This document shows, in pieces, positions 6,999-61,682 of a stretch of 64,000 bases of DNA. Under the pieces are notes generated by a model. The model had not been told where the DNA came from, ran no database searches, and was given only the letters and a program-made list of their open reading frames with translations. Every line of letters starts with the position of its first letter. Within the stretch, counting starts at the first letter, position 1. The stretch is from an uncultured Candidatus Saccharibacteria bacterium. GTDB taxonomy: Bacteria; Patescibacteriota; Saccharimonadia; Saccharimonadales; SZUA-47. The stretch lies in assembly GCA_964419675.1 (NCBI GenBank), contig CAYQPN010000002.1:67073-131072 (forward strand). The letters are read 5' to 3'. Made by a program: the position numbers and the translations under genes.

Positions 6999-7871
6999 TT
7001 ATATACAGCCCCAGTTTTTTAGGTAATACTTTGCCTGATCAACTCGCCAAGGCAACTCTTTTTTTATGTATTTGTCCTGGACAATTACCGCTAGTTCATA
7101 TACCTTCGCAAAAATAAATATCTCTAAAGCTTTAGTACTCCCTGCTAGATTGCCTATCTGATCAATAATTAACTCAACAACATCAATCCCAAACCTTACT
7201 AAAGTGCGCATCTCTGAGTGAATACTGGTGTATCTTAGCTCAGCAAAATCTATTAGCCCAACCAGTTCGTTATTATCATTAAATAACATATTGTCCTCGT
7301 GCAGGTCTTTATGTGCTATTTGGTTGCCTACACAGAATCCATACGGTAATACTTCTCTAAATTCAAAGTAAAGTGACATATATTTTTCTGCGAGTTCACT
7401 CGGGTGTTTTTCGCAAAATTCAGCAATTTTTTTAAGCCAACTATCTACATAATAAAAATCGTTTGGGTCATTCTTCAAAATACTATCAATGTTTTTTCTT
7501 AACTTGGGCGAATTAATTTCTTGAATGAAAGTTGCGAGTTTGTCTGCAAGGTTCATTCTTTGTTCTTTTGTGAGTTTAGATGCTACTTGCGGGGTCAGAG
7601 TTACACCCCCTACATACGATATCTGTAAAAATCCTAATTCTTCATTCAACCCAATAACTTCCGGGATCTTCAGACTCACCTTTGAGTTAAATAAGTCATA
7701 CAAATTTTTCTCTTTTCTTAACAGATTAAAATCCGCTTCTTTTTTCGGAAATTTATAAACATAGTCGCACCCCACAATTGCAACATTGTTCATTTGACCT
7801 CTATCTATCCAATTAACCTCAACATCCCTATGTTTTCTGGCAATATACTTTTCTGCCTCCTCTATCCTCAA
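6999..7871 (-). CDS. Aminoglycoside/choline-kinase-like phosphotransferase (APH fold)
   Basis: Catalytic loop HKDLHEDNMLF and GLIDFAE (DFG-like). Its start overlaps the polA stop by 4 nt. Confidence 0.75.
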   Translation of the reverse strand: MRIEEAEKYIARKHRDVEVNWIDRGQMNNVAIVGCDYVYKFPKKEADFNLLRKEKNLYDLFNSKVSLKIPEVIGLNEELGFLQISYVGGVTLTPQVASKLTKEQRMNLADKLATFIQEINSPKLRKNIDSILKNDPNDFYYVDSWLKKIAEFCEKHPSELAEKYMSLYFEFREVLPYGFCVGNQIAHKDLHEDNMLFNDNNELVGLIDFAELRYTSIHSEMRTLVRFGIDVVELIIDQIGNLAGSTKALEIFIFAKVYELAVIVQDKYIKKELPWRVDQAKYYLKNWGCI

Positions 7872-10552
7872 ATCTCGCCCCAGTTTTTGCCCATAGATAC
7901 ATCCACTTTCAGATTAACCCCTAAGTCTGGTTTAATGTTTTCCATCACACTCACCATCATTTTGCTAACCACACCCGCATCTTTTTCCAAACATTCAACC
8001 ATTATGCTGTCGTGAATTTGCATGATTTGGAAAGCACCTTTTGGCAGTTTTGGCTCAATGGCTGTCATAGACATTTTTGTTAAATCAGCGGCACTCCCTT
8101 GAATTGGCATGTTGATGGCTGCACGATATGCGCCTTCTCGGACCATGAAATTACTTGACTGCACATCTGGTGTTGGGCGTCTGCGCCCCATAACTGTCTC
8201 AACGTATCCCTTATTTTTAGCCTCATCACGGAATCTTTCTATCATTGCTTTCAAACTTGGGCGAACTTCAAAATATTTATCTATAAACTGCTTAGCCTCT
8301 GCGTAACTTATGCCTGTTCCCTCACTTAAACCGTGAACGCCTTGACCATACAAAATACCAAAGTTAACTGCCTTGGCGGCATAGCGCATTTCTTTGGTGA
8401 CTTCTTCTGGTTTCACACCTTGAATTAGGGCCGCTGTCTCCGTGTGAATATCACGATTCTCATTAAACGCTTTAATCATGGGCTGATCGCCTGACATTGC
8501 AGCTGCAATGCGCAGTTCAAACTGGCTGTAGTCAGCACTTATTAACACGTTGCCTTTTTCTGCTACGAATCCCTTGCGTATCTCTCGCCCTAACTCTGTC
8601 CTTACCGGTATATTTTGTAAGTTCGGATCAATGCTAGAAAGTCTACCGGTAGCCGCAATTGTTAAGTTCATTGTGCTGTGGATACGATCGTTTTCATCAA
8701 CCATTAAAGGCAGTGGGTCAACATAAGTACTCTTGAGTTTTGTGTATTCCCGGTATTTCTCAATCTCTTCAATAATAGGGTGCAGGCCCTTAAGTTTACC
8801 AAGCACGTTAGATGCAGTACTGTAGTGCCCTGCTTTTCCTTTTTTAGACGAGGCGACTGGTAAACTTAATGTTTCAAACAATATCTCCGATAATTGCGAA
8901 GGGCTTGAGATGTTAAATTCTTTGTCAGCGTAACCGTAAATTGTTTGCTCAACGTCACTAATTTGATCGCCAAGCTGGTCGGATAGCTTCGCAAAAAACT
9001 TGGGGTCAATCTTCATCCCTGCTCGCTCCAATCTGGCCAGAACCGGAATTACCGGCCAGTCAACTTGCTCTGATAATTTGATTAGACTCGTTACTTCGCT
9101 CATTTGTTCACCCTGATTTGTAGCAAGTGCTCTAATTACAGCAACGACTTCTGCTGATCTAGCCAATAGTTCATCATCATCTAGGTTTTCCAAATCAACT
9201 TGTATGCCAAGATCGCTTTCAATCAACTCACTTAATGACTGGTCCCGACGAAGCGCATCAATAATGAAAGCTCCTATCAAGCAGTCGTGGCCAACCCGTG
9301 GGAGTTTATCAACTTCAAGTTCTAAAAGTACCTTGAAACTATTTTTTAAATCATACCCAATAACAGATTGGAGGTTGAGAATTGGGGATTGGAGAAGCTC
9401 TATCGATATGTTCTTGCGAAGGTCTATTGCGTAACAAGTTTTTTCGTCTGCAAGTAACAAAACTGTCGGGTTTTTGCCGTGTTTACCGCTACTTCTGGCG
9501 TGTAGAACAACATCATCGTTACCGGTCAGCTTTATTTCTTTTAATTGTTTATCATTTGTGACTGATACGATATCTGGTTTTTTCAAATCATCAACGTGGT
9601 TTACTGTTCCCGAACTTTCACCCCCTGCTTCGTACTTCGTACTTTGTAGCTCACTAGATGTAACTTTCATAATCTCAGGAAGATTACGAAGTAGCGACCT
9701 AAACTCTAGCCTTTTTAGAATACTTTCGAGTTTATAAACATCGAGCTTTGCAACGTCCATTTCAGCCAAATCTAGCTCAATCGGGGCATCATCATACAAA
9801 CGAGCAACTTCTTTACTCATATAGGCAGACTGACGCCCTGCTTCCAATTTCTGGGCAATAGTGTGCTTAATTAAAGCCAGATTCTCATAGACCCCGTCAA
9901 GCGTTTTATATTCCCTGAGTAAATCTGAAGCTCCTTTTTCTCCAATGCCTGGCACCCCTGGTATATTGTCAGAACCATCCCCTTTTAGAGCCTTTGAATC
10001 CAAGAATTGATCAGTTGTAATCCCGTATTTTTGTTCAAAACTCTCAGGATCAAAACGCTCAATATTTGTTAAGCCTTTTTTCAAAGCATACATGTGAGTT
10101 AAGGGCCCAAGACACTGCAACATATCTAAATCACTACTAATTAGCATTGTTTCGATACCTTCTTCTGACGCCTTTTTAGCTAAACCGCACATTATGTCAT
10201 CAGCTTCATAATCATCAAGTTCATAAAGTGGCCAGTTAAATGCTTCTAAAACCTCATGTAAAATTGGAATTTGCGCATAAAAATCTGGTGGTGCGGGTTT
10301 ACGCCCCGCTTTATAATCTGGATAGATTGCTAACCGTTTACGGATGTTAGTTTTAGGCTTATCCCAAGCTACACATACATAATCTGGCTTTAGCCTTTTG
10401 ATTAGCTCTAAAGCCATCGCACAAAAACCGTATACCCCGCCCGTCGGCGTACCGTCTTTAGTAGATAAATTAGGCATGGCATAATAACCGCGGTAAAACA
10501 CCGACTTACCATCAATAATTGCTAGTTTCTTACGCTCTTTGACCTCTGGCAT
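7868..10552 (-). CDS. polA: DNA polymerase I
   Basis: 894 aa with an N-terminal 5'-nuclease region (GVYGF, DNIPGVPGIGEKGA). Pol A motifs are DYSQFELRI, KAVNFGILYG and QIHDSIMVE. Confidence 0.97.
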   Translation of the reverse strand: MPEVKERKKLAIIDGKSVFYRGYYAMPNLSTKDGTPTGGVYGFCAMALELIKRLKPDYVCVAWDKPKTNIRKRLAIYPDYKAGRKPAPPDFYAQIPILHEVLEAFNWPLYELDDYEADDIMCGLAKKASEEGIETMLISSDLDMLQCLGPLTHMYALKKGLTNIERFDPESFEQKYGITTDQFLDSKALKGDGSDNIPGVPGIGEKGASDLLREYKTLDGVYENLALIKHTIAQKLEAGRQSAYMSKEVARLYDDAPIELDLAEMDVAKLDVYKLESILKRLEFRSLLRNLPEIMKVTSSELQSTKYEAGGESSGTVNHVDDLKKPDIVSVTNDKQLKEIKLTGNDDVVLHARSSGKHGKNPTVLLLADEKTCYAIDLRKNISIELLQSPILNLQSVIGYDLKNSFKVLLELEVDKLPRVGHDCLIGAFIIDALRRDQSLSELIESDLGIQVDLENLDDDELLARSAEVVAVIRALATNQGEQMSEVTSLIKLSEQVDWPVIPVLARLERAGMKIDPKFFAKLSDQLGDQISDVEQTIYGYADKEFNISSPSQLSEILFETLSLPVASSKKGKAGHYSTASNVLGKLKGLHPIIEEIEKYREYTKLKSTYVDPLPLMVDENDRIHSTMNLTIAATGRLSSIDPNLQNIPVRTELGREIRKGFVAEKGNVLISADYSQFELRIAAAMSGDQPMIKAFNENRDIHTETAALIQGVKPEEVTKEMRYAAKAVNFGILYGQGVHGLSEGTGISYAEAKQFIDKYFEVRPSLKAMIERFRDEAKNKGYVETVMGRRRPTPDVQSSNFMVREGAYRAAINMPIQGSAADLTKMSMTAIEPKLPKGAFQIMQIHDSIMVECLEKDAGVVSKMMVSVMENIKPDLGVNLKVDVSMGKNWGEI

Positions 10553-10611
10553 AATATAAGTATAACTCTTCTCCTGGAAATATTGAGCTTAAGCGCTTAC
10601 AATAGGATTCA

Positions 10612-12660
10612 ATGAGTCATGTATTTGAGCTATTCATAAATAAAGACAAAGTTACAAAAGAAGACTTCCAGACCTTCTACACTACGCTGTCCGGATATAT
10701 GGGTGGTTTAAAAAAACTATGCTTTCACATATTACTAATAGATAAGCATGTAAGATATTTTGTGGCCTCTGATAGAGATTTAAGTGCCATCTCAAGCAAT
10801 GTTACATTCTGCGTACTGAAGCCTGCAGAGGAGAGCGTTGTTGAACTACCAAAACATAGTTCAAGAGAAAGGTTTATAAACTTCGTTAACGGCGGAAGTT
10901 TATTAAATTTACAGGAAAAAGTCTCTGTCAAAAGGGGTAAAAACTTGGAGCACTTCGTATGTGATGTTCGTCGGGTTACTTCAGGAACGGCAAAAGTTAC
11001 TATCAAACTGTATTTTAAAAATGCCGGGGGCGAATGGTCGCTATCTAAAAAATTAACCAACAAGTTTCCTGCTCATTTATTTGCCTTCGATTTTAATACA
11101 GCCAACAACTTTATGAAAAGCGAGATTCCAAAGTATTTAAACATTGAAAAAGTACTACACATGATAGTGTCAGAAAATATCAATGCACTTTTAGAAGTTA
11201 ACACTTTCCCTTATTTCCCAAAATCTTACTACCTACCCCTACCAGCATATGAATTCGATAAACACTCGATGATTGTAGGCGCATCAGGAAGCGGAAAATC
11301 TAAATTTATTGAATTATTCATCGACCGTTTAAATCGCCTACCTAGTAAAATTAACTACCGCGTAATCGTCATTGACCCCCATGCCAACTTAGCAAATGAC
11401 CTGCGGGGTATTGAAGGATCAAAAGTAATAGATTTTAACGGTGAAGCCACGGAACTATTTGCAGGAGCAGAGGCCGACATCACAGCGGCTACTGAGTTAA
11501 CGACCACACTTATGAAATCGCTTATGGGTGATAGTTTCAACCCAAGAGTAGAACGAGTTCTACGCTTTAGTTTGTTTGTCTTGTTTACAGCTCAACGCAT
11601 GTCGCTAGGTATGCTAAAGCGCTTCTTAACAGATTTGGAATTGAGACAACAAATACTTGATCATGTTGCGGGGCATGTTCCACAAAACATCAGCCAGTTC
11701 TTTGCAACGGACTTTAACGAGATACGAACTGCATTTTATAATGAGGGGTTATTACCGATCATCGCAATTGTTGACGAGCTTGAACTGCAGCCTGCTCTGC
11801 TGGCTGAAGGCGGAGTATCTCTCCAGCAAACCATCAATAGTAATTTTTTAACCGTATTTTCCCTCAACAAAGTTAGCATGGGTGAGAAAGTGGTAAAAAC
11901 TGTCGCCGGCTTACTTATCCAGCAAATTTTCTTACTTGCACAATCTCGAGCATTTAATGAACGCGTGCTACTGTTCATAGATGAGGTGTCTGTAGTCCAA
12001 AGCCCCGCTCTTGCCTCAATACTATCTGAGGCGCGTAAGTTTAATCTGTTTGTAATCCTTACTCAACAATACTTTTCACAAGTTGATAAATCATTACGTG
12101 ACTCTATTTTTGCAAACGTTTATAACTATTACTGTTTTAGGGTTGCCGAGGAAGATGCAGAGTTGTTAGTTGGTAACTTACCTATGGAGCTTCCGAAAGA
12201 AATGCTTCTGGACGCTAAATCTAAAGGAGTAAAAGAAGAAACTGTCAAAATGAGAATGCTAACAGACCTGCACCCGCGCGAGTGTATAGTGCGGGTATCT
12301 TCTAACGGGCTACTACTGCCCTGTTTTAAAGCGCGTACATTAGACGTTTCACATAACGTCGTGCAGACATTCGTTCGTGATGATTACAAGCTTCAGGAAT
12401 ATACAGGCACACCGGTTACGATAGATAAGTTTGTAGAAAAAGTAGAAAGCGTAATCAACGAAGAACAAGTTTATTCTCCTCAACCCGAACAAAATATTGT
12501 CTCTACGGGAGAGCCACCGCCTGGACCGCCAGGCTCTAATATCCCGCTTGGGATAGTAGAAATAGAGCCGGTAATAGAAAGCAGACCCTCTAGCTTAGAT
12601 GAAATAATGAATCAACAATCAACTAAAGATAACGAAAACGGAAGAAAGGAAATATCATGA
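10612..12660 (+). CDS. FtsK/HerA/VirB4-superfamily P-loop ATPase (DUF87-like) with unknown N-terminal domain and Pro-rich acidic tail
   Basis: Walker A VGASGSGKSKF (DNA about 11278-11304), RVIVIDPH, and Walker B/arginine region VLLFIDEVSV...EARKFNLFVILTQQ. No TM helices seen. Confidence 0.7.
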   Translation: MSHVFELFINKDKVTKEDFQTFYTTLSGYMGGLKKLCFHILLIDKHVRYFVASDRDLSAISSNVTFCVLKPAEESVVELPKHSSRERFINFVNGGSLLNLQEKVSVKRGKNLEHFVCDVRRVTSGTAKVTIKLYFKNAGGEWSLSKKLTNKFPAHLFAFDFNTANNFMKSEIPKYLNIEKVLHMIVSENINALLEVNTFPYFPKSYYLPLPAYEFDKHSMIVGASGSGKSKFIELFIDRLNRLPSKINYRVIVIDPHANLANDLRGIEGSKVIDFNGEATELFAGAEADITAATELTTTLMKSLMGDSFNPRVERVLRFSLFVLFTAQRMSLGMLKRFLTDLELRQQILDHVAGHVPQNISQFFATDFNEIRTAFYNEGLLPIIAIVDELELQPALLAEGGVSLQQTINSNFLTVFSLNKVSMGEKVVKTVAGLLIQQIFLLAQSRAFNERVLLFIDEVSVVQSPALASILSEARKFNLFVILTQQYFSQVDKSLRDSIFANVYNYYCFRVAEEDAELLVGNLPMELPKEMLLDAKSKGVKEETVKMRMLTDLHPRECIVRVSSNGLLLPCFKARTLDVSHNVVQTFVRDDYKLQEYTGTPVTIDKFVEKVESVINEEQVYSPQPEQNIVSTGEPPPGPPGSNIPLGIVEIEPVIESRPSSLDEIMNQQSTKDNENGRKEIS

Positions 12661-13349
12661 ACGACAATCAAGCAAAAGAAATCATAGACAAAATTATCGG
12701 TCAGATATTTGGATTACAAAATCCTTATACACTTGACCAGTTTGCCGCTAAGTTCGCTTTTGATATTCGCCTAACTTCAGAAGTATTTGATAGTACTACC
12801 GGTGAAAGTACTTGGGCTCAAAACACAAAGCACAATAAGTATGTCAAATTTGAGAGATTAATAACTTCAGATACTGACAGCATGGTCAGCAAGAAAGATG
12901 TTAACTCGATGGAAGATATATTGCACTACTGGCAAGAAACAAACTATACAGCAACCGAGCGCCACTTAAATTCAATGAATGTCGCAAAAAGTGATGCAAT
13001 CTATGGTTCTCAGAATATATATAGAAGTATTGACATACACGATTCTAAAAATGTAGTTTTCAGTGAAAGTAGCAATAATCTTGAATTTGCGGCAGCTATT
13101 CAGAGATCTAACAACTGTGTTTATTCTTTGAGAATCGACGACAGTAAAAAAGTTAGTAAGAGTTTTCAGGTTTCTTGGTCTGGAAACATATCTAATAGTT
13201 TCTTCATTAAAGATGCTAGCAATCTAGCAGACTGCATGTTCTGCTCGCAGATAACAGATAAGAGATTTTGCATTGCTAACATGCAATTTGAAGAAGCCGA
13301 ATACCGTAAATGGGAAAAAATCGTCAAAGCCTGGATACTAAGCAATTAA
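12657..13349 (+). CDS. Hypothetical protein with short Ser/Asn-rich repeats, translationally coupled to the ATPase
   Basis: ATGA stop/start overlap at 12657-12660. The C-terminal half shows a roughly 11-residue periodicity (GSQNIYRSIDI / DSKNVVFSESS / SNNCVYSLRID / DSKKVSKSFQV / GNISNSFFIKD / ASNLADCMFCS). No recognisable family. Confidence 0.6.
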   Translation: MNDNQAKEIIDKIIGQIFGLQNPYTLDQFAAKFAFDIRLTSEVFDSTTGESTWAQNTKHNKYVKFERLITSDTDSMVSKKDVNSMEDILHYWQETNYTATERHLNSMNVAKSDAIYGSQNIYRSIDIHDSKNVVFSESSNNLEFAAAIQRSNNCVYSLRIDDSKKVSKSFQVSWSGNISNSFFIKDASNLADCMFCSQITDKRFCIANMQFEEAEYRKWEKIVKAWILSN

Positions 13350-13352
13350 ACA

Positions 13353-13943
13353 CTAGCATTCTCGATGCGGTTTTAACGCATGTATGGCTAAATGACCTGC
13401 TGTATAGCTAGCAAACAGTAGGCCTCCCCACGTTGAAGCTCCATCAACCCCTGCTGATTCTAGGGTAATTGAACTTGCAAGCCCCCACGAAGCAGTCATA
13501 TCAACCTGCGCATGGTTTAGGCTTGCCATAGAAGCATTACTATGCTCGTGGAGTGAGTTAACTTGCTGATATGCATACGTGTTCCCACCTGCAATAGTTG
13601 TTGCACCTAATAAATTTATAAGATTCTTGTTAAAGTTGTCGTGTGGTATATTACCTGCTCTTATTTCAAGTCCGAGTCGATATGCAGTATATCCTGACAG
13701 CAAACTAGCCATTAACATACCTGTTTTTAGAAAACGTTTAAATATTTTCGTATCTTGGTCTACGGAGAATTTTTCAGATAGAAACCTTGAACCATGATTT
13801 CCTGTATCTGCTCCGTCGTGAATTATCTCTGATATATATGCCTCGTTTCCAGTAAGACCAAAAGCAACCAATGAAACAGTCACAAGCCCAAGATTTGCCA
13901 GCGTCGCATTACGAAGACGCTTTATGCGGTTTAATTTTTCCAC
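13353..13943 (-). CDS. Hypothetical membrane protein (His-rich)
   Basis: 196 aa with several hydrophobic segments and HDGADTGNH. No firm family assignment. Confidence 0.5.
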   Translation of the reverse strand: MEKLNRIKRLRNATLANLGLVTVSLVAFGLTGNEAYISEIIHDGADTGNHGSRFLSEKFSVDQDTKIFKRFLKTGMLMASLLSGYTAYRLGLEIRAGNIPHDNFNKNLINLLGATTIAGGNTYAYQQVNSLHEHSNASMASLNHAQVDMTASWGLASSITLESAGVDGASTWGGLLFASYTAGHLAIHALKPHREC

Positions 13944-55020: not shown

Positions 55021-56319
55021 TTAGCCCTGAATTTTTGGAGGTTTTATGTCTGAAAACGTTTTTACTGGTTTCTTAACGGGTTTTGCTTCTGGCTTTTCTT
55101 CTTCTTTTGTATCTATACTCTGAACTGTTTCTTTGGCTTTCTCTACGCTTACGTCGGGCTTATTGTCTTCAGGTGCAGATTCTGCCGGAACAGCTTTATC
55201 ATTTTTCTTCTTAAGTTTATGCAATATTACTAATGTAGCAGAAAGCAGTAGTGCAACAACCGTATACCCAATGACCGGCTTAAACATTTGCTCAGCAACT
55301 TTAGGGCCAACATAATTTACGAAGTTAACAGCAATTTCCGGCCCAATTAATTTACTAGAGTCTGTCTCGCCAACTGATACAAATTTATCTACTGTAACAG
55401 AGGAACTACCGACGTTAATTAATATTGCTACGACACTTACCAGCATAGCGCCAATAATAAATACCTTTATTACGTGACCTATGCCTTTGCGTATGTTCTT
55501 GCCCAAGAACGCCACAAAAAAAGCCAGAGCAACTGCCAAAATCATTAACCAAGTAAATATCTGCCTAGCTTGCCCAAAATAATAAGGTACGTCGCTATTT
55601 TGCTCATCAAAACGCAAATCAGTCGGACTTTTTGTATCAGAATTAAATACTGTTTTATCCGTCACGACTGTATCTGGGAAAAACTCGTCTGAGTTTAGCT
55701 GTTTACGTAAATCAGCCTCTGATTGGTCAATAACAGCGGTTGGTGGTTTGCAGGCAATAGAAAATATATCAGTTTCTTGTTGAAGTTGAGCAGGGGAACA
55801 GTCCGCAAGTGTTGAAACCTTGTTGCGTGCATAAGAAACAATAGCATCTACAAAAGTAGCTTTTGTGACCGATAAATCTACGCTAAACTCAACTTTTTTA
55901 TCTTGACCATTAAGCCAATTATAAAATCCATCTATAACGCTCTCTGCCACTTTCTGAAGCGTCTGAGGAGTTAGTGATGCAGTAATCGCTGTTTTGACTG
56001 CCTCTGGGTCAATATTATTACCATCCTGATTTTGTTGATTACTGCCGTTGTTTTGATTGTTACTTAGATCTTTATTGGGATCGTTGTTTTGCTGATTGTT
56101 CGATGATGAATCCTTGTTTAACTGTTTGTTGATATCAAAGTTCTTAATGGCACTGTCTATCGCCACCTTGTATGTTTGGCTACCGCTTAGGTACGATTTA
56201 ACTACTTCTTTATCGGCAACCGAATGATTTAATGTCCAGAAAATCGAGCCTAAAAACAAAACTACTATTAATAAAAATGAAAGAAACCATAAACCGAATC
56301 TCCGTATAAATGTAATCAT
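55021..56319 (-). CDS. Hypothetical membrane protein with Asn/Gln-rich low-complexity ectodomain segment
   Basis: 432 aa with an N-terminal TM, an NNQQNNDPNKDLSNNQNNGSNQQNQDGNN tract, three C-terminal TM helices and a Lys/Glu/Pro-rich tail. Confidence 0.6.
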   Translation of the reverse strand: MITFIRRFGLWFLSFLLIVVLFLGSIFWTLNHSVADKEVVKSYLSGSQTYKVAIDSAIKNFDINKQLNKDSSSNNQQNNDPNKDLSNNQNNGSNQQNQDGNNIDPEAVKTAITASLTPQTLQKVAESVIDGFYNWLNGQDKKVEFSVDLSVTKATFVDAIVSYARNKVSTLADCSPAQLQQETDIFSIACKPPTAVIDQSEADLRKQLNSDEFFPDTVVTDKTVFNSDTKSPTDLRFDEQNSDVPYYFGQARQIFTWLMILAVALAFFVAFLGKNIRKGIGHVIKVFIIGAMLVSVVAILINVGSSSVTVDKFVSVGETDSSKLIGPEIAVNFVNYVGPKVAEQMFKPVIGYTVVALLLSATLVILHKLKKKNDKAVPAESAPEDNKPDVSVEKAKETVQSIDTKEEEKPEAKPVKKPVKTFSDIKPPKIQG

Positions 56320-57402: not shown

Positions 57403-58077
57403 TTATATGTTCTGAGCAAAAACTGCGGCGTACACTCGCTTTGCTCCGGCAGATTTCAAAATCTTACTAGCTGCCGACAGAGAAGCGCCAGTTGTCATAA
57501 CATCGTCGATTAGTAAAATCGTTTTACCTGCAACAAACTCTTTGTTACTTACCATAAACTCGCTTTTCATATGTTCTATTCTATCTGCCCGACTTGAGCC
57601 CACCTGACGCCTATTAGTCTTCCTGCTGAGAAGCCTCATAGCCTCCCAATCTCTTAATTTACCCAGCTCATTAACCAGTAACTGTGCATGGTCAAAGCCA
57701 CGCTCTCTGATTCTTGACGGTGCGGTAGGCACACAGCACAGCACAATATCATCTGACAAAGGAGGAATTACGTCGTTCATAATTGACACAATGGCGCTAG
57801 CAGCTTGGCGCTGATACTCAAACTTGTAGCTTTTTATAAGTCTTTCGTTGGCACCTTCGTAAATTCCACAAACATACACTGCATAAGGTGTTAGCCATGA
57901 TCTACAGCTGTCACAAGTTCTAAAATTATCCGTCAAAGTAGTACACCCGGCACATCTAGGAACTAGAGGTTCATGAAAATTGAACTGACACGTTTTACAC
58001 AACACCTCTCCCTCAAGCCCACAACCAATACAAACATGGGGTGCCACCAGACCAGCTAATTTATCAAAAACTAACAT
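57403..58077 (-). CDS. comFC: ComF-family phosphoribosyltransferase-domain protein
   Basis: N-terminal Cys clusters (CIGCGLEGEVLCKTC, CAGC...CDSC) and the PRT motif ILLIDDVMTTGASL. Confidence 0.85.
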   Translation of the reverse strand: MLVFDKLAGLVAPHVCIGCGLEGEVLCKTCQFNFHEPLVPRCAGCTTLTDNFRTCDSCRSWLTPYAVYVCGIYEGANERLIKSYKFEYQRQAASAIVSIMNDVIPPLSDDIVLCCVPTAPSRIRERGFDHAQLLVNELGKLRDWEAMRLLSRKTNRRQVGSSRADRIEHMKSEFMVSNKEFVAGKTILLIDDVMTTGASLSAASKILKSAGAKRVYAAVFAQNI

Positions 58078-58926: not shown

Positions 58927-59325
58927 CTAAGCAGTTGCTTTATCAAGTACATATCGCACAATAACTTGTGCTAACGCAACGATTATTAAACCAACTACTG
59001 CGTAGAGTATCGTATTCTTTGCACCGGTTACGTTACCAGAATCGCCACCCGATGTAATATACTTCAAACCACCAATAATTATCATTATTACGGATATAAT
59101 ACCCACTGCAAGTGAAAATATGTTAATTACGTTTGTAATTAGCGAATTAACTTTAGTGTCGGCATCACCAGTTTCATCACAAGATGAATCTGTCGTGCTT
59201 AAACAGGTTCCTTTTTGCAATCCTTCGGTGATTGAAGCCGCTGATACCATTGAAGGTACTGCCATTGGCAACAATAGTCCTAATGAAGCTGCTAGGCTGA
59301 ACATAATTCTCTTTACTCGTGTCAT
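58927..59325 (-). CDS. VirB2/TrbC-like two-helix pilin-type protein (paralog 6, most promoter-distal)
   Basis: Signal peptide ...MAVPSMVSAAS, Cys pair (GTCLSTTDSSCDE), helix 1, loop GGLKYITSGGDSGNVTGAKNTILYAVVG, helix 2. Confidence 0.7.
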   Translation of the reverse strand: MTRVKRIMFSLAASLGLLLPMAVPSMVSAASITEGLQKGTCLSTTDSSCDETGDADTKVNSLITNVINIFSLAVGIISVIMIIIGGLKYITSGGDSGNVTGAKNTILYAVVGLIIVALAQVIVRYVLDKATA

Positions 59326-59400
59326 AGTTTGTTTACTTCCTTTTTTACTTATTTCTCTTAGATTAATTTATAGCACAATCACTATACTCTCACAACTTTT

Positions 59401-59874
59401 TTAGCAAGGACCGCCACCTGCATTGCGACAATCATTCTCGAATTGGGTAGCGTCTTGTCGTTGTGACTGGTTTAGCCCGTCATCTGCCTTATTTAGCACG
59501 AATCTGACCATTATTTGCGATAAAGCTACGATCATTAAACCTACCAGCGCGTACAGTACAGTATTTTTAGCAGAAGAAACATTTGAAGCATCACCTTGAG
59601 ACGTAATGAATTTTACACCCCCTACTATGATCACTATAACCGTGATGACACCAGCAACTATAGATAGCAGGCCCAGGGCGGTCGTCAAAATTCCATTTAA
59701 GCTACCGCTTGAGTCTCCACTATTACAGTTAGTGTTGCTATCGGTAACAGCCACACCCTCACAGGCAGCATTTTTGGCAGCATCAAATTGAGCAAAAGCG
59801 CCAGACCCTAATAGCGTTGTTGAAAGTCCCAGCGTTGATAGTGATATAGCGAGTGTTAATAATACTTTTTTCAT
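59401..59874 (-). CDS. VirB2/TrbC-like two-helix pilin-type protein (paralog 5)
   Basis: Signal peptide ...GSGAFAQ, Cys pair (AACEG...NCNSGD), loop GGVKFITSQGDASNVSSAKNTVLYALVG, and an extra C-terminal tail with a second Cys pair (NDCRNAGGGPC). Confidence 0.7.
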   Translation of the reverse strand: MKKVLLTLAISLSTLGLSTTLLGSGAFAQFDAAKNAACEGVAVTDSNTNCNSGDSSGSLNGILTTALGLLSIVAGVITVIVIIVGGVKFITSQGDASNVSSAKNTVLYALVGLMIVALSQIMVRFVLNKADDGLNQSQRQDATQFENDCRNAGGGPC

Positions 59875-59894
59875 CCAAATACCTCTTTTTCTGT

Positions 59895-60308
59895 TTAAAA
59901 TCGTCCTAATACAAACCTTACCGTAAGTTGTGAGGCTACGGCTATAATTATACCAACTGACGCATAAATTATTTGCATCCTGGATGTTGATATCTTATGG
60001 GAATCACCCCTGGAAAGTGTCATTCTTATCCCGGCAATCATAAATACAGCCACTGCGATAATACCCACCACAAATGACAATGCATTGAGAGCCTTGGTCA
60101 AGATCCCATCTTTCCCGTAGATCGGGTTGGTGGTTTTTGCGGTTTCAATATCTCTACAAATCGCCGGCACTTCGCCGTTGCCGAAGTCCCCGCTACAAAC
60201 ATCGTTAGATATGTCTACCTGAGCTCCGGCAGGCAAGACGGACAATGCAGGTACGAATAAGCTTAGAGCCAGACTCGCTGTTAAGACAAACCTTTTTAAT
60301 ATTTTCAT
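59895..60308 (-). CDS. VirB2/TrbC-like two-helix pilin-type protein (paralog 4)
   Basis: Signal peptide ...LPAGAQV, Cys pair (DVCSGDFGNGEVPAICRD), loop AGIRMTLSRGDSHKISTSRMQIIYASVG. Confidence 0.7.
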   Translation of the reverse strand: MKILKRFVLTASLALSLFVPALSVLPAGAQVDISNDVCSGDFGNGEVPAICRDIETAKTTNPIYGKDGILTKALNALSFVVGIIAVAVFMIAGIRMTLSRGDSHKISTSRMQIIYASVGIIIAVASQLTVRFVLGRF

Positions 60309-60628
60309 TTCAATACGTCCTTAAGAAGGAATATTACTATCAAATTTGCACTTAATGACACAACCAAGCCCACAAAAGCATAAATAATACCTTTTCTGGC
60401 ACTTGCAGCTTTTTCTGGGTCACCGCCAGACAAAATAAAATTCAAAGCCTGAACCATGATAATGATTGCTGTAACCGCAGAAATTGTAGCAAAAACAATT
60501 GTCAGCACAGTCTGCAAAGCACTCCCATCTGCATTAACCTGCGGGAGATTAGTAAGACACCCAGAATTCCCCGTTGATCCTTCGGGACAGTTTTTCACTT
60601 GAGCGAATAATTTTAGTATTGTTTCCAT
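60305..60628 (-). CDS. VirB2/TrbC-like two-helix pilin-type protein (paralog 3, shortest, no obvious signal peptide)
   Basis: Cys pair (KNCPEGSTGNSGC) and loop ALNFILSGGDPEKAASARKGIIYAFVG. 4-nt overlap with the downstream paralog. Confidence 0.65.
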   Translation of the reverse strand: METILKLFAQVKNCPEGSTGNSGCLTNLPQVNADGSALQTVLTIVFATISAVTAIIIMVQALNFILSGGDPEKAASARKGIIYAFVGLVVSLSANLIVIFLLKDVLK

Positions 60629-60633
60629 AATGA

Positions 60634-61077
60634 TTAATTAAAGCTGTTAGCGATAAATGACACCGCGGCCGATGCGATAACGGTTATTGTTAGACCAACC
60701 AATGCATTTATTGCTGTAGATTGTGCCTGCTTAGTTTTGTCTGGCGCTCCTTGACTAATAACATAACTAACACCACCGTATATTATAAAGCAAATTGCCA
60801 CTAAGGCGGCCACTCTTAGTAATATTTCAATAACTGCGGCAATAATTAACCACGTGTCATTTATGCCCTTAATATCCAAGTTACATACCGTTGCATTTGT
60901 TAATGGATCTGTGTCTATGTTGCTATCAAGATATTTATACCAGGTGGGGAACCCCAGAAAGGATGACTGAGCACACCTTGCAGCGTACGCTCTTGCTGAG
61001 CCAAAAAATATCCCGACCAGTAAAAAACTGTACATAAATACTATGAATATCTGGGTCAATCTTCTAATACGAATCAT
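60634..61077 (-). CDS. VirB2/TrbC-like two-helix pilin-type protein (paralog 2)
   Basis: N-terminal hydrophobic signal/anchor ...GSARAYAARC, second Cys (TVCNLD), loop YGGVSYVISQGAPDKTKQAQSTAINALVG. Confidence 0.68.
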   Translation of the reverse strand: MIRIRRLTQIFIVFMYSFLLVGIFFGSARAYAARCAQSSFLGFPTWYKYLDSNIDTDPLTNATVCNLDIKGINDTWLIIAAVIEILLRVAALVAICFIIYGGVSYVISQGAPDKTKQAQSTAINALVGLTITVIASAAVSFIANSFN

Positions 61078-61682
61078 ATGAACATCCCTCCAGGAACCAG
61101 AAAATTAGCAATTGCAAAAATAAATAAGTATAAAAACAGCGCAATAACACTATTAGTCACTCTCTTAATGGACGCCTCTGTGGATTGTGGGTTACCTCTT
61201 GAAGCTGAGTACTGTATCCCAGCCAAAATTATAGACCCAATAACTACTATCCCTACCCCAGCACTTAAAAACCTGAATAATGCAAAAGCCATATCAATGA
61301 TTGGGTTGACATCGTTAGACCCCGGGTAACTCTCTCCTCTACAGCCGATGTTAATACTCACTTTTACTACGTGTTCTCCCTTCCCGCACTGCCTACCATC
61401 TGCTCCTGTACTTGTATTCGTAGTACCTCCAGGGTTTATCGCCGTACATTCGCTTGGGTTTGAGCTACAAAAACTACTTGACTGAGATGCTGAATTATTC
61501 GTAGTGCTGTTAGTTGCTGAGCAGGGGGTACCATCATCGGGCTTTGTCGTCCCGTCCGGGCATGTTTGCAACGGTTCTGCCCATACTATGTTTGAACCGT
61601 AAATACTCCCAAGTGCCGTGAAGCTTAATAGCCCTACCACTATTAGAGTTAATAATTTGTTCTTAGCTTGTTTAATTTTCAT
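61074..61682 (-). CDS. VirB2/TrbC-like two-helix pilin-type protein (paralog 1, largest variable ectodomain)
   Basis: Signal peptide ...NIVWAEP, six Cys in a Thr/Ser/Asn-rich ectodomain, loop AGIQYSASRGNPQSTEASIKRVTNSVIA. First gene of the minus-strand array. Confidence 0.65.
   Translation of the reverse strand: MKIKQAKNKLLTLIVVGLLSFTALGSIYGSNIVWAEPLQTCPDGTTKPDDGTPCSATNSTTNNSASQSSSFCSSNPSECTAINPGGTTNTSTGADGRQCGKGEHVVKVSINIGCRGESYPGSNDVNPIIDMAFALFRFLSAGVGIVVIGSIILAGIQYSASRGNPQSTEASIKRVTNSVIALFLYLFIFAIANFLVPGGMFI

Follow-up and report, generated by a model that had tools for sequence, protein, structure and literature searches.

A conserved gene pair of Saccharibacteria encoding an FtsK/HerA-superfamily ATPase and a repeat protein, with relatives in Micrarchaeota

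Results

The gene pair and its linkage

The window analysed here is a stretch of 64,000 nucleotides from an uncultured Candidatus Saccharibacteria bacterium (GenBank assembly GCA_964419675.1, contig CAYQPN010000002.1, positions 67,073 to 131,072). It contains two adjacent genes, the first encoding an ATPase related to FtsK, HerA and VirB4 and the second a repeat protein to which we refer as the partner (Table 1). The ATPase stop codon and the partner start codon overlap as ATGA, read as ...ATATCATGAACGAC, and a purine-rich GGAAAGGAAA precedes the overlap. An earlier note, made from the letters of this DNA alone, had reported both open reading frames (ORFs), their coordinates and overlap, the divergence from polA and several sequence motifs, all of which we find as it described them; its picture of a soluble ATPase with an unrecognisable N-terminal domain and a Pro-rich acidic tail, translationally coupled to its neighbour, also holds. 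Homologues number more than 1000 for the ATPase and more than 200 for the partner, which indicates that the genes are real.

Table 1. Positions in the window of the gene pair, its domains and motifs, and other features
Feature	Position	Strand	Remarks
ATPase gene	10612..12660	+	682 aa plus stop
ATPase N-terminal domain, aa 1-215	10612..11256	+	alpha/beta in AlphaFold2 model; predicted local distance difference test (pLDDT) mostly ~70-92
Motor domain, RecA-like P-loop core, aa 216-581	11257..12354	+	hhalign, Foldseek and profile matches
Walker A GASGSGKSKF, aa 223-232	11278..11307	+	sequence; 46-homologue alignment
All-helical insertion, aa 288-410	11473..11841	+	between Walker A and B; AlphaFold2 secondary structure
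Walker B LLFIDEV (aa 453-459) and EARKFNLFVILTQQ block (aa 473-486)	11968..12069	+	conserved Arg/Lys, Gln
Pro-rich acidic tail, aa 582-682	12355..12657	+	disordered; pLDDT <50 in AlphaFold2 model
Conserved short motif near tail end, aa 660-672, SSLDEIMNQQSTK	12589..12627	+	L662 and S670 invariant
Partner gene	12657..13349	+	230 aa plus stop; start overlaps ATPase stop
Partner N-terminal helix/hairpin domain, aa 1-98	12657..12950	+	strongly conserved; AlphaFold2 model
About nine 12-residue repeats, aa 99-211	12951..13289	+	autocorrelation; near-continuous beta in AlphaFold2 model
Most conserved family block CMFCSQITDKRFCIANMQFEEAEY, aa 193-216	13233..13304	+	homologue alignment
Partner C-terminal stretch, aa 212-230	13290..13346	+	conserved; amphipathic helix by eye
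polA	7868..10552	-	divergent from ATPase gene
polA/ATPase spacer	10553..10611	.	59 bp, divergent; should hold both promoters
ComF-like phosphoribosyltransferase	57403..58077		
Small-ORF cluster	58927..61682	-	two ORFs with Pfam T4SS_pilin matches
T4SS_pilin ORF	59401..59874	-	34 bits, above cut-off
T4SS_pilin ORF	61074..61682	-	24 bits, just under 26.6-bit cut-off

Of 85 bacterial loci, nearly all of them from Saccharibacteria, 82 have the ATPase gene directly upstream of the partner gene and in the same orientation; in the remaining three, fewer than 530 bp of upstream sequence are available and the contig end is too near to judge. The two genes are inseparable in Saccharibacteria. Of the two conditions that the earlier note had named as refuting it, neither holds: the partner accompanies the ATPase in every testable locus, and the ATPase is not a universal housekeeping translocase. 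When one genome per GTDB species was scanned with the partner profile, at least 393 stretches encoding it were found, a lower bound because the seed patterns were strict. Among full-length homologues of both proteins, every one with a named taxon is from Saccharibacteria or Patescibacteria, with identities of roughly 45-80%.

Clustering of the neighbouring genes in 84 loci revealed no third universally linked gene, and no type IV secretion system (T4SS), relaxase, phage or plasmid family recurs beside the pair. Among the neighbours, gatCAB lies downstream in about 31 loci and uvrB upstream in 24, and polA adjoins the pair in 6. The flanks consist of housekeeping genes that differ between genomes and lineages (polA, uvrB, gatCAB, rpoBC), and the pair is a chromosomal, vertically inherited two-gene operon of Saccharibacteria. 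In 8 loci (L027, L046, L047, L061, L068, L073, L076 and L082) the partner is tandemly duplicated downstream of the ATPase, with 2-4 diverged copies that all retain the N-terminal motif and the C-terminal CIANMQ..EY block. A pair of the Saccharibacterial type also occurs on contigs of metagenome-assembled genomes (MAGs) labelled Limnocylindrales, Bacilli or Nomurabacteria (L011, L053, L061, L063 and L080), labels that are probably wrong. In the three mouse-gut "Bacilli" MAGs among them (L053, L063, L080) the ATPase is far diverged (37-38% identity) and the partner well kept (49-53%).

The ATPase

As had been proposed, the ATPase is a member of the FtsK/HerA/VirB4/VirD4 (additional-strand, conserved-E) P-loop superfamily, within which it forms a distinct clade. 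Three Pfam models match above their cut-offs: TrwB_AAD_bind (PF10412; 36.5 bits, cut-off 20.5), DUF87 (HerA-central; 32.5 bits) and Pox_A32 (26.8 bits, cut-off 22.8), the last restricted to aa 443-535. A Foldseek search of the PDB gave 91 matches at E<=1e-3, led by HerA (5e-12) and TrwB (2e-10); SIR2-HerA anti-phage complexes match about as strongly as TrwB, and DndH and FtsK are also present. The match to HerA has low template modelling scores (0.33 and 0.46) and a root-mean-square deviation of 16 A, and sequence matches to HerA cover aa 215-269 only. Scores with the NCBIfam models for TraD, VirD4, VirB4, EccC, CedD and anti-phage HerA are 12-25 bits, where the cut-offs run into the hundreds (for TraD and VirD4, 18-25 bits against 250-521), and no PDB sequence scores above 21 bits with the profile of the Saccharibacterial ATPases.

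The protein is a soluble ring-type motor whose nearest characterised relatives are the coupling proteins of Gram-positive conjugative plasmids. Comparison by hhalign with a Bacillus plasmid coupling protein gave a probability of 97.6% over 380 columns, the helical insert included, and a tblastn search of plasmids found Bacillus DUF87 coupling proteins with 24% identity, each beside a replication-relaxation gene and Tcp-type transfer genes. The same type of search gave no phage match to the ATPase. Among viral structure models (BFVD) the best matches are Bacillus phage proteins of 800-900 aa and a 754-aa "conjugal transfer protein" (1e-12 to 5e-18), whereas A32-like ATPases match far more weakly (1e-4 to 1e-2). 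The type IV coupling proteins (T4CPs) of plasmids (DUF87/TcpA/VirD4-like, for example WP_128472464 of a Bacillus licheniformis plasmid) resemble the ATPase in a motor homologous over about 380 residues, in a helical insertion between Walker A and B and in a small gene immediately downstream. Unlike them, the ATPase has a different N-terminal domain and no N-terminal transmembrane anchor, has no relaxase, T4SS or plasmid genes around it, resides on the chromosome, is inherited vertically and has orthologues in archaea. The partner is likewise unrelated to the replication-relaxation gene that follows the plasmid T4CPs, and the idea that it could be a diverged relaxase-like protein of that kind was dropped at an hhalign probability of 0.08%.

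Several more specific identities were considered for the ATPase and rejected. As a replacement of FtsK, or an FtsK/SpoIIIE translocase, it would be expected to do better than 15.1 bits with PF01580 (cut-off 24), a match confined to the P-loop, and it has neither FtsK_gamma nor the four transmembrane segments; moreover, a related Saccharibacterium possesses a separate canonical FtsK (SEML1_0096). VirB4 is excluded by a score of 14.3 bits with TIGR00929 against a cut-off of 643. The VirD4-like protein SEML1_0293 of S. epibionticum is not the same protein either, having at least 920 aa, a P-loop that begins only at about residue 360 and no 230-aa neighbour. Descent from a viral packaging ATPase, or from a domesticated virus, is contradicted by the weak A32 matches in BFVD and by the absence of relatives from phage and viral contig collections. 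The best PADLOC match is mad8 (47.6 bits on the motor core), with several HerA models scoring lower and on the P-loop core only; the mad8 match stands alone, with no other mad gene beside the ATPase, which rules out a MADS system, and we found nothing on mad8 in the MADS paper.

In the AlphaFold2 model, which was built from 46 homologues and is of moderate confidence (pLDDT 75), the N-terminal domain is confidently predicted and begins with a beta-alpha-beta-beta-alpha-beta arrangement. This domain has no sequence match in Pfam, NCBIfam or the PDB and no relatives detectable outside its own clade, and its start motif is common to the orthologues from Saccharibacteria, Micrarchaeota and other candidate phyla radiation (CPR) bacteria. 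The catalytic core is strictly conserved: among the 46 homologues, G223, G226, S227, G228, K229, S230 and K231 of Walker A are invariant, as are D457, E458, V459, E473, A474, R475, K476, Q485 and Q486 in and after Walker B. The helical insertion is placed as the all-alpha domain of coupling proteins, and the alignment with the plasmid T4CP runs through it.

The tail has a net charge of -10 and an isoelectric point (pI) of 4.3 and varies freely in length and sequence among homologues, so that the linker cannot be aligned. Near its end stands a short motif with the family consensus NLSELLAxQSSSR, followed by basic residues in most lineages; a short helix is modelled at aa 662-668, and the C-terminus is basic in most homologues. 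A conserved motif that closes a free linker resembles a docking peptide. The tail of TraD binds TraM, and the long C-terminal extension of the ATPase with its terminal motif recalls that tail. Neither the ATPase nor the partner has a transmembrane segment; the search for a membrane anchor in the ATPase found no candidate, the highest 19-residue Kyte-Doolittle mean (1.53) falling inside the motor domain (aa 452).

The partner protein

The partner family is new; its hallmarks are some nine repeats of 12 residues that follow an N-terminal domain and precede a C-terminal block, and a gene position next to the clade-specific ATPase. Over aa 100-212 the partner profile gives an autocorrelation of +0.41 for lag 12 and +0.01 for lag 6. 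The best lag in 500 column shuffles had a mean of -0.43 +/- 0.09 and never exceeded -0.14, which places lag 12 about 9 standard deviations above the shuffled values. A period of about 11 residues had been suggested at the outset; the actual period is 12 with a sub-period of 6, and lag 11 gives -1.01. In the repeat register, Ser, Cys, Ala or an aliphatic residue stands at positions 1, 4, 7 and 10, and turn-type residues at positions 11-12.

The repeat region is predicted to form a narrow beta-helix. The AlphaFold2 model, based on 51 homologues, has N-terminal helices and hairpins followed by an almost unbroken beta region at about aa 98-196. A Foldseek search with this model found nothing significant (best PDB E=1.2), and most of the weak matches (E>1) are to proteins with a beta-helix, among them polygalacturonases, a pentapeptide-repeat protein and LpxD. 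The suggestion in the earlier note of a beta-solenoid-like fold is thus supported by the significant periodicity and by the modelled beta region with its weak beta-helix matches. No match to the partner was found in Pfam, NCBIfam, PADLOC, PHROGs or, by sequence, the PDB. Even at E<=1, Pfam returned nothing for the partner or for 25 archaeal relatives, known beta-solenoid families included, and the hexapeptide left-handed beta-helix, pentapeptide, bactofilin, MinC_C and pectin-lyase-like families gave neither a profile match nor a significant fold match.

The antifreeze protein of Tenebrio molitor is a beta-helix with 12 residues per coil and the repeat TCTxSxxCxxAx. The partner may be compared with it in structure: both have a period of 12 and, at every third residue (positions 1, 4, 7 and 10), a small amino acid or Cys, and the archaeal paralogues have Cys ladders. 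The two are not matched by the sequence or fold searches, and the partner differs in being cytoplasmic and free of a signal peptide, in its additional N-terminal domain and conserved C-terminal block, and in the use by Saccharibacteria of mostly Ser, Ala and aliphatic residues in place of Cys.

Within Saccharibacteria F195, N208, Q210, E215 and Y216 are invariant, and the skeleton cmFcf....kr..I.N.....e.Y is common to the Saccharibacterial partner and its Micrarchaeal paralogues. The Cys cluster that had been remarked on is present (CMFCSQITDKRFC, aa 193-205), although only C196 and C205 are nearly invariant in Saccharibacteria. We rejected it as a conserved metal site, as just these two Cys are kept and the Cys positions swap with Ser or Ala and fall on the every-third-residue core positions. 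At aa 212-230, where we read an amphipathic helix by eye, the AlphaFold2 model has low confidence and DSSP assigns no helix. The pI of the partner is 5.1 in Saccharibacteria and 5.9-8.6 in Micrarchaeota, and the possibility of a DNA mimic was discarded because the protein is not strongly acidic and its archaeal paralogues are neutral to basic.

Relatives in Micrarchaeota and other CPR bacteria

An exhaustive profile search with the partner alignment retrieved 1624 representative proteins at E<=1e-3. The wider family includes a large set of proteins of about 525 aa with two copies of the domain; those with a named taxon are all from Micrarchaeota or from an unclassified "uncultured archaeon", and these two-domain relatives have no Pfam or PDB match. 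Four Micrarchaeal contigs each carry one DUF87/TrwB-type ATPase (575-714 aa) next to 3-9 paralogues with lengths of about 255 or 525 aa, which are largely translationally coupled. On these ATPases the profile of the Saccharibacterial ATPases reaches 191-211 bits, which identifies them as orthologues, and a Pro/Glu-rich tail with a basic end is present in two of the three inspected. The module therefore exists outside Saccharibacteria, with its partner family expanded into gene arrays, and both facts go beyond the earlier note.

The archaeal domains are of two subtypes, which follow each other in strict A,B alternation in all 30 examined, and fusions are without exception A-B. Domains of one type are 35-38% identical, those of different types 24%. 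In three arrays (L086 5380..15503, L087 10001..19356 and L088 10001..14622) a regulator of the HTH_10 family stands at or inside the array, and the ATPase gene is convergent at the far end. Where three or more paralogues form an array, among the 82 archaeal loci, the ATPase is usually part of it; solitary paralogues occur elsewhere, some of them on an array-bearing contig, with no ATPase within 10 kb. The recurring neighbours in these loci are HTH_10 regulators, regulators with double winged helix-turn-helix domains and housekeeping genes, the regulators of either kind adjoining partner genes in 19 loci. AbiEi/AbiEii pairs were found in three archaeal loci and HicA beside one array (L086). A search of the 82 clustered loci for a linked membrane channel came up empty, returning only regulators, housekeeping genes, a few AbiE pairs and, in 4 loci, a DsbA-like protein.

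Toxin-antitoxin genes, either HicA or an AbiEi/AbiEii pair, lie immediately beside Micrarchaeal partner genes at L086 5123..5359, at L093 8584..9932 and at two further metagenome loci, which hints at a variable or defence-type neighbourhood. The DsbA-like protein is a membrane-anchored thioredoxin near solitary Cys-rich paralogues (for example L136 17712..18593), and may be relevant to disulfide formation by the Cys ladders with 3- and 6-residue spacing that are found in the archaeal paralogues.

Two further bacterial genomes carry the adjacent pair (ATPase 33-38%, partner 31-38% identity), one of them a Patescibacteria MAG and the other represented by a 1.2-Mb contig, where the pair is located beside rpsG-rpsL-rpoC-rpoB. 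The ATPase orthologue in a Patescibacteria MAG (BPJD01000001.1) is broken by one in-frame TAG (L092 7348..7350) and stays in frame beyond it, which a sequencing error, a gene split in two or read-through could explain. On a Dojkabacteria contig a DHH phosphoesterase gene is followed by a diverged partner homologue (L091 8001..8741; 28% identity) that stands alone, with no ATPase within 8 kb, so that the partner family can exist unlinked. No relative of the partner was found among IMG/VR contigs and GenBank phages.

Discussion

A possible motor-client system

In the archaeal arrays a single motor is accompanied by up to nine partner genes (twelve domains), further paralogues are scattered elsewhere on the same contigs, and the partner carries no enzymatic signature, all of which suggests clients rather than fixed subunits. 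The A,B alternation and the A-B fusions in turn suggest that partners act as dimers. We tentatively favour a motor-client system in which the ATPase handles partner dimers, and put its probability at roughly 0.35. On this reading, the partners would be clients of the motor, neither stoichiometric subunits nor enzymatic effectors, and would probably act as A-B heterodimers in archaea and as homodimers in Saccharibacteria. A putative ATPase hexamer would recognise these dimers through its N-terminal domain, its helical insertion or its tail motif, and ATP hydrolysis might then move, deliver or assemble them, by analogy with T4CPs and their effectors or with EssC/EccC and the Esx proteins. In Saccharibacteria the destination could be an unlinked T4SS, or the process could be a purely cytoplasmic assembly.

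In type VII secretion systems the FtsK/SpoIIIE-type motor EssC/EccC serves many tandem pairs of Esx (WXG100) proteins, which form heterodimers and some of whose loci are distant from the motor. The resemblance, an analogy only, lies in one motor with many small paralogues, to which correspond the A,B alternation, the A-B fusions and the scattered solitary paralogues seen here. There is no homology to EccC beyond the P-loop (models reach 12-18 bits against cut-offs above 340), EssC/EccC is membrane-bound and has membrane partners, of which none are found here, and Esx proteins are helical hairpins whereas the partner is a predicted beta-helix.

A number of points weigh against the motor-client proposal. 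In neither bacteria nor archaea is the module linked to a membrane channel, a membrane-spanning protein or a signal peptide, so that gene context gives export no support, and the ATPase lacks the membrane anchor that coupling proteins have at their N-terminus. DNA is what motors of this superfamily usually move, and it could be the substrate here too, with the partner as an accessory. Some Micrarchaeal arrays adjoin HicA or AbiEi/AbiEii, which fits a defence island. The partner model, with a pLDDT of 75 and a predicted template modelling score of 0.50, is only moderately confident. Finally, S. epibionticum ML1, a strain of the one genetically tractable relative, probably does not possess the pair: its regions syntenic with the window (dnaG-rpoD-AAA-polA and gatC-uvrB) contain no such pair, and no orthologue was found in its transposon-sequencing tables by gene length, neighbour names or ECOD codes, a conclusion that is inferred from tables rather than from sequence.

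Alternative explanations

The module could instead be an immune system, in which invading DNA is sensed or processed by an ATPase of the HerA type that switches on the partner as its effector, the archaeal arrays being the product of an arms race. The earlier note had pointed to ATPase-plus-effector operons as a common anti-phage layout. HerA-effector complexes (SIR2-HerA/Nezha, DUF4297-HerA) and the archaeal HerA-NurA share with the pair the superfamily, solubility and the two-gene operon with a partner that presumably docks on the ring; they are among the top Foldseek matches (5e-12 to 1e-9). The mad8 and HerA matches in PADLOC, the duplication and diversification of partner copies, the HicA and AbiEi/AbiEii genes next to some arrays and the dedicated regulators all point in the same direction. 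Against this, the sequence likeness to HerA systems and to PADLOC models is confined to the P-loop core, with no HAS-barrel detectable by sequence, and phage, viral and plasmid collections yield only distant coupling proteins. The partner is not a SIR2, nuclease, NurA or DUF4297 protein by Pfam, NCBIfam or PADLOC, nor does it bear a TIR or other effector signature, and the ratio of one ATPase to up to nine partner genes is unlike these systems. The Saccharibacterial pair is single-copy and vertically inherited among lineage-varying housekeeping genes of the core genome, and its presence in at least 393 species-level genomes at the identities given above is unlike patchy, fast-moving defence genes. 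These findings weaken the anti-phage suggestion, and we consider an immune role unlikely, while still taking it seriously.

A bolder version of the motor-client proposal is a hitherto unrecognised system for handling proteins, perhaps of a secretion type, of the CPR and of the archaeal DPANN group (Diapherotrites, Parvarchaeota, Aenigmarchaeota, Nanoarchaeota, Nanohaloarchaeota), in which a soluble T4CP-like motor would deliver dimeric narrow beta-helix proteins to the cell surface or into a host cell. If true, such a delivery system would be part of the machinery of ultra-small episymbionts and an example of its transfer across domains. We are quite doubtful of it. A related thought, that the ATPase might be the missing energising ATPase for the pilin/VirB6-like locus of the same window, loses ground on several counts: the two loci are about 46 kb apart, no T4SS gene is linked to the pair in the 84 loci, the ATPase has no anchor, and the orthologous Micrarchaeal modules have no linked channel gene.

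We are equally doubtful that the ATPase is a motor for DNA transactions (repair, recombination, uptake or segregation) with the partner dimer as a NurA-like clamp, adaptor or regulator. FtsK, HerA, TrwB and DndH all handle DNA and all match the fold of the ATPase, its C-terminus is basic in most homologues, and genes for DNA enzymes are common neighbours: polA in the window and in L003, uvrB in 24 of the 84 clustered loci, and ligases in L005 and L087. This neighbourhood is not conserved, however, and would be expected by chance in genomes of less than 1 Mb; a canonical FtsK is present in a related Saccharibacterium; the partner matches no nuclease or DNA-binding family and is not consistently basic; and up to nine paralogous partner genes per ATPase are hard to reconcile with an accessory of repair.

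It is also conceivable, if very unlikely, that the module is a cytoplasmic structural system whose beta-helix dimers polymerise into a filament or scaffold, with the ATPase putting it together or taking it apart. Bactofilins and other repeat beta-helices commonly polymerise, membrane components and signal peptides are absent, and the A/B alternation suggests defined hetero-oligomers. The partner nevertheless matches neither bactofilin, MinC nor any other polymer-forming family, many divergent paralogues would be unusual for a cytoskeletal element, and we know of no precedent for an FtsK/HerA-type motor as a remodeller of polymers. A decaying, functionless remnant of an integrated conjugative element, consisting of a coupling protein and an accessory gene, is suggested by the plasmid coupling proteins with their small downstream genes and is close to refuted by the invariance of all catalytic residues and the evident purifying selection on both proteins in hundreds of species. 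The lack of kinship between the partner and the replication-relaxation protein and the absence of any relaxase, integrase or T4SS gene nearby also speak against it.

Published context and significance

Quinonero-Coronel et al. (PMC12102498) counted 5713 homologues of VirD4-type T4CPs in 2918 Patescibacteria genomes, 148 of them near virB4, and considered that these homologues may be exapted. By our own inference, the ATPase clade described here was probably counted among those far from virB4. Wang et al. (PMC10633639) found the T4SS of S. epibionticum to be essential, with no recognisable coupling protein in its locus; their annotation table lists a VirB4 (SEML1_0008), the canonical FtsK and the larger VirD4-like protein already mentioned, the latter without a partner-like neighbour. 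Our literature search found no paper on the module or the partner family, and the module appears to be undescribed.

The genomes of Saccharibacteria and Micrarchaeota are very small, and the pair has been kept intact across hundreds of species, so that it likely matters to the cell. The occurrence of the same module in the bacterial and the archaeal radiation of ultra-small symbionts suggests either gene transfer across domains or a shared requirement of their lifestyle. The layout of one motor with many, apparently paired, putative clients may shed light on the dealings of such organisms with hosts or with parasites of their own.

Other features of the window

The neighbours of the pair in the window are polA, a gene resembling those of cation diffusion facilitators (CDFs) and a polyprenyl synthase gene. 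The base composition near the pair is not unusual. The spacer between polA and the ATPase gene contains a promoter-like site (10575..10603, + strand, 9 of 12 matches), which marks a position and is no evidence of function, and the number of promoter- and terminator-like sites in the region of the pair is not above that in shuffled sequence. The CDF-like gene is a 196-aa ORF (13353..13943, minus strand) with a weak match to Cation_efflux (28.2 bits, just above cut-off) that covers the membrane domain only, and may be a truncated CDF transporter; it is also present on the near-identical contig L001 and is missing from this position in L003.

No family matches a 432-aa ORF (55021..56319, minus strand) significantly, and its one hit, to the catalytic domain of a fucosyltransferase, is below threshold. 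At about 58.9-61.7 kb, the T4SS pilin cluster probably represents one end of the Saccharibacterial T4SS locus, that with the pilins, and the rest of the locus would lie beyond the end of the window.

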